In this document: positions 14,703-53,811 of the stretch, in pieces | How the letters are laid out: every line of letters begins with the position of its first letter | How positions within the stretch are numbered: position 1 is the stretch's first letter | Origin: an uncultured candidate division WWE3 bacterium | GTDB taxonomy: Bacteria > Patescibacteriota > WWE3 > UBA101185 > UBA10185 | NCBI GenBank assembly: GCA_938004185.1 | Contig: CALKWN010000065.1 | Coordinates: 315,111-379,110 of the forward strand | Direction: 5' to 3' | DNA length: 64,000 nt | Notes under the pieces: generated by a model | The model's input: only the letters and a program-made list of their open reading frames with translations | Databases searched by the model: none | Told to the model about the DNA's origin: nothing | Program-made: the position numbers and the translations under genes

Positions 14703-14873
14703 GAAAGGTGGTGTGAGCACCGCAAGGTGCTTAGCAGCTTTCTGGGATGGCGGGGCGAGAATGCCGGAAGGAGCATTAGCGACTGAGGCGGGGTCTCGAG
14801 CTTTACAGATTGTTTGAGCGTTAGCGAAATACAATGTGTTAAGACTTGTGACCGAGCCCCGTCACCCGCTCCA
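14682..14873 (+). repeat. 21-bp direct repeat of the tRNA-Gly 3' end (14682-14702 and 14853-14873) flanking a 150-bp structured insert
   Basis: CGAGCCCCGTCACCCGCTCCA occurs twice, identically. Confidence 0.92.
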
Positions 14874-50713: not shown

Positions 50714-52711
50714 CTAGTTAAGCATCTTTTTCATCTCTCTTACTCTATCGCGTAAAACGGCAGCTCTTTCAAAATTCAGCATTTCAGCTTCGTATAACAT
50801 TTCCTTTTCAATATTTTTAATTTCCCTGCTAAGTTCTTTGGGAGGCAACTGTCTGTAATCAACTTCTTTTCCTAAAGATTTCCCGCTTTTCTTACTCTGA
50901 AGTGTTTCTTCAAGTTCTTGGTCAATGAGTTTTTCGCGTATAGGTTTGGATATTTTTTGAGGTTTAACATTATTTTTTTCGTTGTATTCCAATTGTATTT
51001 GACGCCTTCTCTCAACCTCATGTATGGCTCTTTTCATGCTGCCGGTCATATTATCCGCATACATCAATACTTCACCGGATATGTGACGCGCCGCTCTCCC
51101 CATTGTCTGAATAAGCGAAGTTTCCGACCTTAAAAATCCTTCTTTATCTGCGTCCAGAATAGCAACCAAAGACACTTCGGGTAAATCTAAACCCTCTCTT
51201 AACAAGTTGATCCCCACCAAAACGTCGTATTTACCGTTACGCAGGTTATCCAAAATGTCGGTTCTCTCCAAAGTATGTACATCTGAATGCAGGTAGGTGA
51301 CTTTTATCCCTTTTTCAAGCAAATATTCCGACATTTCCTCTGCCATTCTTTTCGTCAATGTGGTTACTAAAACTCTTTCTTTTCTCTCGATCCTATCTTT
51401 AACTTTTTCAAGTAAATCCTCGATCTGATTTTTTGTCGGCAGAACGGTCACTTTCGGATCCACAATTCCGGTTGGACGTATAAGTATTTCTGCGGAAGTG
51501 CCGTCCGATCTATCCAGCTCCCATTGGTCGGGGGTGGCGCTTACATAAATTGTCTGATTAACCCTTTCTAAAAATTCGTCGAAATTAAGAGGTCTGTTAT
51601 CCATAGCGGAAGGGAGTCTGAAACCGTAATCCACTAAGACCTGCTTTCTTGATCTGTCTCCGTTGTACATTCCCCTGATTTGAGGAACAGTTATGTGAGA
51701 TTCGTCTATGATTAATAAATAATCCTTGGGAAAATATTCCAGTAAGGCGTGGGGGGCATCTCCCGGGTTTCTTCCGTCAAAATATCTCGAATAGTTTTCT
51801 ATTCCTTTGCAGTAGCCTAACTCTTTTATCATCTCAAGATCATAATTGGTTCTTTGCTCTAATCTGTAAGCTTCTAGTTGTTTTCCGGTTTTTTTCAACT
51901 CTTTAAGACGTATTTCGAGGTCGGTTTCTATTTGCTTCAAAGCAACCTGACGGGTTTCTTCGGGAGCTACGTAGTGTTTCGCAGGATAAACTACGGCTAG
52001 ATCCGAGTAAGGCTTGGTTATGTAATTTCCGGTAAGGGGTTCAAAAAAATTCATATCAACTAAAACATCATCCGATATTTCCAGTCTCAACCCTTCGTCC
52101 TCGTAAGCCAGATACACATCAATAACATCTCCGGTTACTCTGAAGGTTCCTCTATGAAAATCATATTCTGAACGCTCGTAGTAAATCTGAGATAATCTTT
52201 TTAAAAGGTCGGATTTTCGAATTTTCATACCCGTCCTAAGCTCCAGGGCAACTTTTGAATATTCTGCCGGACTTCCTAGGTTGTATATGCAGGAAACCGA
52301 TGATACAACTATGACGTCCTTTCTAGTCATTAAAGATGTTGTGGCTGAAAGTCTTAACTTATCGATCTTTTCGTTAATCGCGGAATCTTTTTCAATGTAA
52401 GTATCGGTTGAGGGTATATAACTTTCGGGCTGGTAATAATCGTAATAGCTCACAAAATACTCAACCGCATTTTCGGGAAAAAAGTCCCTGAATTCCTGAT
52501 ACAGCTGTGCCGCCAACGTTTTATTGTGAGAAATTACTAAAGTAGGCTTTTGTACTTTTTCAATAACGTTCGCAACAGCAAATGTTTTTCCGCTTCCTGT
52601 CACGCCCAACAGAACCTGATCTTTTTTTCCAGATTCCAGTCCTAAAGTTAATTTATTGATAGCGTCAGGCTGATCACCCGTCGGTTTAAATGGAGAAACA
52701 AGCTTAAACAT
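50714..52711 (-). CDS. uvrB: Excinuclease ABC subunit B (start set at ATG 52711)
   Basis: GVTGSGKT, FVSYYDYYQPE, DESH, GINLLREGLD, GRAAR. Confidence 0.98.
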   Translation of the reverse strand: MFKLVSPFKPTGDQPDAINKLTLGLESGKKDQVLLGVTGSGKTFAVANVIEKVQKPTLVISHNKTLAAQLYQEFRDFFPENAVEYFVSYYDYYQPESYIPSTDTYIEKDSAINEKIDKLRLSATTSLMTRKDVIVVSSVSCIYNLGSPAEYSKVALELRTGMKIRKSDLLKRLSQIYYERSEYDFHRGTFRVTGDVIDVYLAYEDEGLRLEISDDVLVDMNFFEPLTGNYITKPYSDLAVVYPAKHYVAPEETRQVALKQIETDLEIRLKELKKTGKQLEAYRLEQRTNYDLEMIKELGYCKGIENYSRYFDGRNPGDAPHALLEYFPKDYLLIIDESHITVPQIRGMYNGDRSRKQVLVDYGFRLPSAMDNRPLNFDEFLERVNQTIYVSATPDQWELDRSDGTSAEILIRPTGIVDPKVTVLPTKNQIEDLLEKVKDRIERKERVLVTTLTKRMAEEMSEYLLEKGIKVTYLHSDVHTLERTDILDNLRNGKYDVLVGINLLREGLDLPEVSLVAILDADKEGFLRSETSLIQTMGRAARHISGEVLMYADNMTGSMKRAIHEVERRRQIQLEYNEKNNVKPQKISKPIREKLIDQELEETLQSKKSGKSLGKEVDYRQLPPKELSREIKNIEKEMLYEAEMLNFERAAVLRDRVREMKKMLN

Positions 52712-52732
52712 CAAAAATGATTTTAACACAAT

Positions 52733-52748
52733 TTTGGGTTTTGTTTGG
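52733..52748. promoter_or_regulatory. Putative LexA box upstream of uvrB
   Basis: TTTGG-N6-TTTGG direct repeat in the promoter. Confidence 0.55.
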
Positions 52749-52755
52749 ATAATAG

Positions 52756-52783
52756 TTGCATTAATTTTTTAATTGAATATAAT
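52756..52783 (+). promoter_or_regulatory. Promoter of the candidate ncRNA
   Basis: TTGCAT-16 bp-TATAAT. Confidence 0.65.
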
Positions 52784-52787
52784 TTGT

Positions 52788-53083
52788 GCTGATCCCGAAA
52801 GGGGAGACGGAGATTTCGCCGAAAGGCGACATAGCGGGGAAAAAATAAACCCCAAGTTGCATGAGACGGGAATGTTCTTGACGCAGGATATGTTTAACAA
52901 AGCGCATTAAAAATTTGTGCTTCCAACTATCCTCTGAGCAGCGCGTCAGGATTTCCTTCATGCTTTTGAAACTAAATACATCTGCCGGGTTAAACCCTCC
53001 TTTTTATTGTGAAACAGATCGGCGACCCCACCCAACCCGGCGACAAGAATGCCGTGATTCCTAAATAGTCTCACGGCATTTTT
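52788..53083 (+). ncRNA. Unassigned structured RNA of ~295 nt
   Basis: Promoter upstream, terminator at the end, two GAAA tetraloop hairpins, long G-U-containing rod, long-range helices. Confidence 0.65.
53048..53083 (+). terminator. Intrinsic terminator upstream of the lexA promoter
   Basis: Perfect 10-bp stem AATGCCGTGA/TCACGGCATT followed by TTT. Confidence 0.8.
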
Positions 53084-53088
53084 CCTTA

Positions 53089-53149
53089 TTGACATCTTCG
53101 TATAATATTCGGTAGTATGAACATGGTTAAAAACCAAAGAAAAACCGTA
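53089..53149 (+). promoter_or_regulatory. lexA promoter with two putative LexA boxes
   Basis: TTGACA-18-TAGTAT; TTCGT-N6-TTCGG (53097-53112) and CCAAA-N6-CCGTA (53134-53149). Confidence 0.7.
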
Positions 53150-53175: not shown

Positions 53176-53811
53176 ATGAGCCCCGTAACCCTATACAAAA
53201 GGCAAAAACAAATTTTAGATTTTATTTCACAATATATTCAAGTAAACGGGCATTCTCCAACTCTTCAGGAAATTGCGGACTCCATGAATCTTTCCTCGCT
53301 TGCTACGGTACACGAACATATCCAGGCTCTCGAAAAGAAAGGTTTAATAAAGAAATATGAAGGTTCTGTAAGAGGCATAGAAATTCTGGATAAATCCTTT
53401 AACTCATCTTTAATGGCTGTCGAACTTCCTCTCGTAGGTTACATCGCTGCCGGTGAGCCTATAGAAGCTATAGAAAATTCTCTTGCTACAGTAACTGTCA
53501 GCGCAGACATAGTTTCAAAAACCAAAAGATGTTTTGTTTTACAGGTAAAAGGTGACTCGATGATAGATATGGGAATTTTCGACGGCGACCACGTTGTAAT
53601 ACAACAGCAAAATACAGCGAGAGATGGTCAGATAGTAGTCGCCCTAATAGATAACGAATTTGCGACATTAAAATCAATATTCCATGAGAAAAACGGTAAG
53701 ATAAGACTCCAACCGGCAAACACTAAAATGGATCCTATATTTGTAGATCCCGCAAGCCTTAGTATCCAGGGAGTTGTCACCGGAGTAATTAGAAGATTCC
53801 AAAACAACTAA
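53176..53811 (+). CDS. lexA: SOS repressor LexA
   Basis: wHTH SPTLQEIA...L.KKG; AAG cleavage site; GDSM Ser; TLK Lys. Confidence 0.96.
   Translation: MSPVTLYKRQKQILDFISQYIQVNGHSPTLQEIADSMNLSSLATVHEHIQALEKKGLIKKYEGSVRGIEILDKSFNSSLMAVELPLVGYIAAGEPIEAIENSLATVTVSADIVSKTKRCFVLQVKGDSMIDMGIFDGDHVVIQQQNTARDGQIVVALIDNEFATLKSIFHEKNGKIRLQPANTKMDPIFVDPASLSIQGVVTGVIRRFQNN

Follow-up and report, generated by a model that had tools for sequence, protein, structure and literature searches.

A candidate structured RNA between uvrB and lexA of a WWE3 bacterium, in a slot where most congeners carry a small open reading frame

The window analysed here, a stretch of 64,000 nucleotides, comes from the main contig (C65) of G000, a 99% complete assembly of an uncultured WWE3 bacterium. 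At the locus of interest a predicted RNA unit is bordered by two genes confirmed by Pfam: uvrB, divergently oriented (minus strand, 50714..52711; domains UvrB, UvrB_inter and Helicase_C), and lexA (plus strand, 53176..53811; LexA_DNA_bind and Peptidase_S24). The small contigs of G000 are heavily contaminated, carrying 28 different small-subunit rRNA 3' ends, and because so many of them are foreign, the analysis rests, where it matters, on C65 together with C176. Pattern matching finds a direct-repeat operator candidate in the uvrB promoter (52733..52748), nearly invariant among congeners, which we regard as a putative LexA box likely to be bound by LexA. The initial annotation had drawn from this box a possible link of the RNA to the SOS response; the proximity is real, with the repeat 7 nt upstream of the -35 element of the unit, but the same repeat is present in G005, a congener without the unit. 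A second direct-repeat candidate (53097-53112), also found by pattern matching, lies within lexA's own promoter, TTGACA-18-TAGTAT (53089..53118, plus strand), which was identified by promoter scan and is kept in genomes that lack the unit.

The slot between uvrB and lexA is a landing place for inserts across genera. A search for lexA loci, taken to the best 30 of 82 genomes matched, yielded 23 from other genera, 20 of those with uvrB adjacent; eight of these 20 gaps hold extra DNA, 349-1052 nt in length, most with unrelated small genes (L117, L119, L122, L124, L125, L128, L131 and L134). The gap at L117 encodes a 54-residue peptide similar in layout, with its charged start and hydrophobic end, to the congener peptide described below.

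The unit itself lies on the plus strand and begins with a promoter (52756..52783) composed of -35 TTGCAT, a 16-nt spacer and -10 TATAAT. An element of the type TTGC...TATA(A/C)T stands at the matching position in all eight units compared, and is absent from G005. All eight also have a pyrimidine-G at +7/+8 after the -10, followed by R-Y-C (a G-R-Y-C start), which places the predicted 5' end (52788..52794) at G52791, within a range of 52788-52791. A Shine-Dalgarno-like purine tract (52798..52806) follows about 8-16 nt past the start, at the position of the ribosome-binding site of congeners, and AUU stands at +23 in the window, in place of the AUG found at +24 to +27 in congeners. The tract overlaps a weak hairpin 1 (52794-52803), after which come hairpin 2 with a GNRA loop (52816..52829), hairpin 3 with an A-rich loop (52836..52853), the part most variable among strains, and a 105-nt interrupted rod (52859..52963) with a 9-nt bulge on its 3' side (52934-52942). 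A linker predicted to be single-stranded (52964..52983) aligns with the stop-codon region of congeners and the CAUC motif after it, and leads to a 3' hairpin with an 8-bp stem and a 42-nt loop (52984..53041) and to an intrinsic terminator (53045..53083) with 13-nt arms that are 92% complementary. A consensus scanner missed both the promoter (its -35 matches at 3/6 positions) and the terminator (its loop is 13 nt), so that these two calls rest on conservation.

All of the motifs named by the initial annotation are present where it had placed them, and most of the local structure it had read from them is borne out by predicted pair probabilities: 0.96 for hairpin 2, 0.83 for hairpin 3, 0.96-0.99 for the helices of the rod, 0.82-0.97 for the 3' hairpin and 0.99 for the terminator. 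Hairpin 1, CCC-GAAA-GGG, fared poorly at just 0.13-0.16, and a proposed switch pairing of 52816-22 with 53019-25 received 0.00-0.02; these values come from nested folding, which cannot score pseudoknots. The rod is well folded, but two of the helices listed for it both use A52951. On the plus strand G-U accounts for 3 of the 48 pairs, and the energy of the rod is -37.7 on that strand versus -28.4 on the other. The whole unit folds at -94 kcal/mol (z -3.4 on the plus strand, with none of 100 shuffles as good; z -1.45 on the minus strand), and the 5' part plus rod, taken without the terminator, reaches z -4.04 (1/200 shuffles) against -1.36 on the minus strand. Of 600 pieces of C65 matched for GC content and 191 nt long, 4 equal the fold of the hairpins and rod of the window, and the cores of seven ORF-type units have z from +0.96 to -1.4, versus -3.4 for the window.

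The stretch occurs, whole or in part, in 19 of the 22 sequencing runs listed, from 10 studies, two of the runs being possibly the source of the assembly. Since single contigs from other studies, among the seven runs compared, span the unit (X9 covers 52720-53100 with one difference, X18 covers 52300-53118), it is not an assembly artefact. One metatranscriptome contig, X19 (267 nt, depth 3.7), is identical to 52843-52963 over part of its length and does not resemble the window over the remaining 146 nt; it gives no strand, end or level of transcription, and both a chimera and a second genomic context are possible explanations of it. That the X19 run showed no identical contig over uvrB or lexA among the matches listed proves nothing.

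Five of the six congeners (G001, G002, G003, G006, and G004, where two contigs share it) carry a unit of equal length in the same slot; G005 has none. The order of parts in these congeners is promoter, strong ribosome-binding site, 52-codon ORF, the same 3' hairpin, and terminator. The initial annotation had overlooked this small membrane-protein ORF standing in place of the hairpins and rod, and because of that replacement just the ends of the unit are conserved: BLAST matched 11 of 61 genomes, and each non-self match begins at the 3' hairpin or the terminator. Measured from the start G, the motif that precedes the 3' hairpin is 188 nt away in the window and 189-200 nt away in congeners. A metagenome scan anchored on the terminator plus the lexA promoter returned 46 loci, of which 35 were dropped for want of a lexA start downstream; the remaining 11 precede lexA, and 11 of 11 are of the ORF type. 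The shared promoter position, 3' hairpin and terminator uphold the earlier reading of a stand-alone unit with a promoter and a terminator of its own.

The 3' hairpin and terminator form a module that is paired in 111 of 111 cells across seven sequences, with two-sided changes at 3 of 16 pairs (two in the hairpin, which is 100% paired, and one in the terminator). Slid controls give 32-46% pairing, a contrast that is not to be read as a probability since the seven sequences are related. Homologs, which the initial annotation had called for, were obtained for this module, and no credible ones for the 5' hairpins or the rod. The module was found in 6 of 134 genomes of the class, every time at the uvrB-lexA slot of the same genus; two matches outside the genus had E values of 0.005 and 0.009. 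Among viral sequences, 91 matches to a pattern of the module reached at best 21 bits, with a broken terminator, and the terminator-lexA anchor had no viral match.

The congener ORF yields seven distinct peptides of 52-55 residues, with hydropathy of 1.6-1.9 and identities at the three codon positions of 0.72/0.74/0.57, values that make it look like a genuine membrane protein. It occurs in 5 of 86 genomes of the family, all in the same genus, and was not found in G000. No Pfam family matches it, the best hits have E 0.22 in PHROGs and 0.80 in Atlas, none occurs in viral contigs, and among 1.84 billion cluster representatives there is one real cluster. The gene at L006:1274-1432 and its orthologs make up a genus-limited family with its own promoter and terminator. 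We consider the peptide a candidate type I toxin or membrane regulator. An antitoxin promoter was found neither in the window nor in a form common to all congeners; promoter-like sites on the minus strand are missing from the window and G001 and fall within the lexA promoter in three of seven units.

A comparison of the window's middle with the congener ORF shows no homology (z 1.34 in sense and 1.59 in antisense orientation), in species whose lexA third positions have already approached saturation (0.42-0.50). In a tree of 13 loci built from lexA, part of uvrB and dedA, the window species lies outside the ORF clade with support 85, and sits next to that clade with support 48.

Within the genomes and collections searched, the 190-nt part made up of hairpins and rod is limited to one species. 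BLAST in sets of 61 and 7 genomes matched the 3' part only, with nothing for the 5' hairpins or rod. Model R2, built from one sequence and its predicted structure and therefore of limited reach, matched 2 of 134 genomes of the class and 2 of 151 of the phylum, each time G000 and one other. In G084 the match (35 bits) falls within a Fic-family gene whose ortholog in G000 has no match there, and its local score of 55 compares with 52 for the best random piece (up to 400 pieces); we ascribe it to chance. So, too, the match in G204 (23 bits, E 0.001), found in a GC-rich leader before a recombinase-like ORF. That leader (L158:1501-1615) is a GC-rich, multi-hairpin element directly 5' of a large recombinase-like ORF, with no Rfam match. 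Pattern searches gave candidates that were likewise set aside: 34 viral matches to the two-hairpin pattern, none of them recovered by nhmmer and several group-I-intron-like by eye; two viral matches to the 5' arm of the rod, neither matched by R2; and, for the rod centre, two matches in genome collections and none in viruses, at 6.3 bits or less. No hairpin or rod pattern was found in phages or plasmids, and the bulge pattern occurs in one of 401 genomes, namely G000 itself. The unit has no second copy in G000, no flanking repeats and no phage or plasmid match. With no homolog found outside the species, covariation in the rod is not measurable. A literature search, outside the supplementary motif tables of comparative-genomics screens, found no paper on this RNA.

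Strain variants offer a partial substitute. In the X10 variant, 11 substitutions fall in the 293 nt of the unit, six at unpaired positions, four preserving a pair (C-G to U-G, U-G to C-G, U-A to U-G, and G-C to G-U) and one breaking a pair in hairpin 3, which across variants has three substitutions and two indels. The hairpin 2 loop changes from GAAA to GGAA in a strain variant and is still GNRA, and none of four variant substitutions in the rod breaks a pair. Set against random placement, this retention does not reach significance, with P 0.14 in the rod and 0.105 over the unit, and a first variant set (7 substitutions, 1 pair broken) was uninformative at P 0.51. Rates of change say more. One contig differs at 2 of 205 RNA sites versus 4 of 40 lexA third positions (p 0.007, or 0.026 if both unlisted differences fall in the RNA), and overall, among the differences listed and without phasing, 11 of 293 RNA sites differ versus 20 of 194 in lexA, all 20 of them synonymous (p 0.007). 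A divergence of about one-third that of lexA synonymous sites is partial evidence that the folded middle is under constraint. No conserved reading frame is present: the small frames of the window (11, 12, 17, 20 and 34 codons) have no conserved or well-placed start, and in strain variants an insertion after 52976 shifts the only 34-codon frame with a Shine-Dalgarno-like site.

Against the 4227 models of Rfam 15, the window returns four tRNAs only at the gathering threshold; the best scores in the region are 17-18 bits (E 1.8-7.5), amid noise up to E 10, and six congener loci likewise gave no match. The suggestion that this is an uncatalogued structured RNA is borne out to that extent. 6S RNA is, as a whole molecule, one rod with a large central bubble, and binds sigma70 RNA polymerase. 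The interrupted rod of the window recalls it, as it does the small SRP RNA, but here the rod is an internal 105-nt part of an overall fold of hairpins, rod and 3' hairpins. The 6S model (RF00013) has no match in the unit or in G000, the small SRP RNA model (RF00169) none to E 1 in G000, and no SRP54-family protein (PF00448) was found in that 99% complete genome. RNase P RNA and tmRNA, normally present in one copy per genome, were rejected as identities of the unit, both being located elsewhere on C65, the first at 602939-603277 (L012:1501-1839) and the second at 679927 (126.6 bits). At 81.9 bits the RNase P RNA falls short of the RF00010 cut-off of 100 and would be overlooked in routine annotation.

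Two features of the 3' loop may tie the unit together over long range. The loop holds the anti-Shine-Dalgarno stretch CCUCCUUU (52996-53003), a GAUC (53017-20) and a C-rich run. GAUC at the 5' end can pair with 53017-53020, and the closing helix GCUGAUC/GAUCGGC of the initial annotation has its full 7 bp if transcription starts at 52788; from the likely start, G52791, it would shrink to 4 bp. Pairing of the 5' end with the loop's GA(U/C)C is possible at positions 1, 2 and 4 in eight of eight units, at 3 and 5 in seven and at 6 in six, with A-U, G-U or G-C at position 2, counts that are partly circular since the register was fixed by choice on GA(U/C)C. The pseudoknot that had been proposed is thus formable, with 4-6 bp, in 7 of 8 units, but duplex energies beat those of shuffles in just 1 of 8 (window p 0.20); the 5' end is the loop's best partner within the window unit (-19.0), and 20% of shuffles do as well. 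We regard docking of the 5' end as suggestive only, and as unlikely the more general scheme of an RNA chassis whose first bases would dock into its own 3' loop and close an interchangeable 190-nt cargo loop. The second feature is the complementarity of the purine tract at 52798..52806 with 52997-53005 (9 bp, two of them G-U), which has a probability of 0.00-0.10 in nested folds, these being blind to pseudoknots.

The 8-mer CCUCCUUU is identical to one in the 16S 3' tail on contig C176, and its complement occurs 47 times on C65, 15 of these directly before an ORF start. Congener loops retain no more than a U-run and C/A-rich runs, and since the full anti-Shine-Dalgarno occurs just in the loop of the window, the proposed seed is not conserved. 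When five unpaired stretches were scanned against 730 gene starts, or half of them, the best duplex was with a pilin-like gene at C65:93833 (-23.4 vs -17.3 +/- 2.1 for shuffles). This duplex and the sole perfect 13-nt match, in a PD-(D/E)XK nuclease gene at C65:666217, are what a generic anti-Shine-Dalgarno finds in any genome. No target common to the window and its congeners was found. For the window loop lexA ranks 316 of 730, and 16 of 24 control leaders are as good. Three of seven congener units (L003, L007 and L081) have a 3' loop that matches, along some 10-14 nt, the complement of the spacer separating the Shine-Dalgarno site of lexA from its start, and there the unit's own lexA beats all 24 leaders from unit-less genomes; this preference is absent in the window, G001, G003 and L067.

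Three described systems resemble the unit in part. RsaE of Staphylococcus aureus (PMC2790875) is an Hfq-independent sRNA in which an unpaired C-rich motif blocks ribosome loading. It shares with the window unit a stand-alone intergenic position and a C-rich stretch predicted to be unpaired, in a genome, G000, in which neither Hfq nor CsrA was found; the window differs in having CCUCC and CCCC but no UCCC in its loop (three of six congener loops do have UCCC), in its size of about 290 nt with a long rod, and in its restriction to one species. In type I toxin mRNAs such as Helicobacter aapA (PMC6733600, PMC8594479), the Shine-Dalgarno is locked by a distant anti-Shine-Dalgarno. The congener units are similar, at 290-300 nt from promoter to terminator, with a short hydrophobic peptide and a structured 3' end, and both an SD-like tract and a far-off anti-Shine-Dalgarno are retained in the window; unlike those mRNAs, the window unit has no short hydrophobic ORF, present in the congeners and a criterion of type I toxins, and it is single-copy, with a long-range duplex mostly no better than shuffles. 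The sRNA OxyS (PMC8825220) took the place of a peroxidase gene, whose regulatory setting it retained. The window RNA similarly occupies a slot and promoter used by relatives for a protein gene; the difference is that full length has been kept while the middle is a new folded domain with no detectable homology to the ORF. Retention of length and ends around a folded domain standing where relatives have an ORF is what is new with respect to OxyS.

In our judgement the unit is a functional stand-alone RNA on a chassis shared with its congeners, with a probability of about 0.8. How it would act can be set out more tentatively, and the complete mechanism is possible at somewhat less than even odds: a ~290-nt sRNA would pair its anti-Shine-Dalgarno loop with ribosome-binding sites of mRNAs, a reading suggested by the identity of the loop stretch with the 16S 8-mer, by the failure to find Hfq or CsrA, and by RsaE as the nearest model. 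The transcript would begin at G52791, or at most 3 nt before it, and end near 53083. Stability and gating of the loop would come from the folded 5' domain together with the short pairing of 5' end and loop, and the leftover SD-like tract could cover the anti-Shine-Dalgarno through its nine possible pairs; once exposed, the loop would cover strong Shine-Dalgarno sites and repress translation in trans without Hfq. The terminator would insulate lexA, leaving it to be driven by its own promoter. The mechanism explains the rod, the largest part of the molecule, just as a stabiliser. On a doubtful alternative, the rod with its 9-nt bulge, together with the hairpins, would be the working part, binding a protein such as RNA polymerase, RNase III (which G000 encodes) or a phage protein, while the 3' hairpin and terminator would only stabilise and end the RNA. 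No part folds better than the rod, which strain variants preserve, and G000 has no Rfam 6S match; yet the unit resembles neither 6S nor SRP RNA by model, no rod homologs appear in the 134 class and 151 phylum genomes, nor the bulge elsewhere in the 401, and the partner RNA of a core protein would be expected to be more widespread.

It is unlikely, in our estimate, that the slot takes up unrelated units of promoter, cargo and terminator and that the middle is here a relic or passenger, a foreign or decayed fold-back sequence with no present role in an inherited chassis, its anti-Shine-Dalgarno left over from silencing of the peptide's own ribosome-binding site after the fashion of the type I toxin mRNAs above. 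The extra DNA in eight of 20 gaps of other genera, the congener with an empty slot, the confinement of the middle to one species and the sequestration known in such mRNAs (PMC6733600, PMC8594479) all fit this view; they are set against a strain divergence about one-third that of lexA synonymous sites, a length equal to that of the ORF type, improbable for an unrelated insert, and a single copy with neither repeats nor phage or plasmid matches. A mobile or catalytic element lodged in the small-protein gene (retron RNA, intron remnant, ribozyme or miniature insertion element) is improbable. Judged by eye, the outline of short hairpins and a long stem between short inverted repeats resembles a retron RNA, and the order of the two crossing helices is that of an H-type pseudoknot; G000 is moreover rich in miniature structured inserts behind tRNAs. 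Retron ncRNAs have a reverse transcriptase gene adjacent, however, and here the neighbours are uvrB and lexA, no reverse transcriptase occurs on C65, and the six matches in G000 are on contaminated small contigs. No group I or II intron, HDV-like or other ribozyme model of Rfam matches to E 10, no ORF remnant flanks the rod on either side, and a profile of the tRNA-linked inserts misses the single-copy unit (none of its 16 matches), so those inserts were rejected as relatives. We consider extremely improbable the other reading offered by the initial annotation, in which the unit would act as attenuator or switch within an extended leader of lexA. Unit and lexA share a strand, and three of seven congener units pair their loop better with their own lexA start than with the 24 unit-less leaders, but the window loop has no such preference, the terminator has a probability of 0.99 and the alternative pairing one of 0.00-0.02, and, because lexA has behind the terminator a promoter that unit-less genomes share, such a leader is excluded as far as sequence can exclude it.

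On the unlikely scheme of a chassis with interchangeable cargo, a membrane-peptide ORF in most species and a folded domain of equal length in this one, a whole small-protein gene would have become a structured RNA gene, or have derived from one, inside a single genus, and this RNA/ORF swap would sit behind a promoter abutting a LexA-type operator. The locus offers a rare side-by-side pair: the unit is a small-protein mRNA in five species, and a sister species has a predicted folded RNA with no ORF but with the same ends and length. It would make the origin of sRNAs from small-protein genes, or the reverse, testable in a genus with reduced genomes. The setting is one in which Hfq, CsrA, 6S and SRP RNA were not found in G000, and the folded middle has been seen in a single species. 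PMC9297842 deals with the ribosomes of CPR bacteria only.

Elsewhere in G000, several reverse transcriptases are encoded on the contaminated small contigs. For 11 of the 44 tRNA genes on C65 and C176, the 3' end recurs within about 90-160 nt downstream as a copy of 19-21 nt, mostly with a structured insert and a terminator hairpin between the two, as at 14703-14873 of the window, behind tRNA-Gly. A profile of the core of these inserts finds 14 copies in G000 at E < 1e-4, some of them with no tRNA called upstream.
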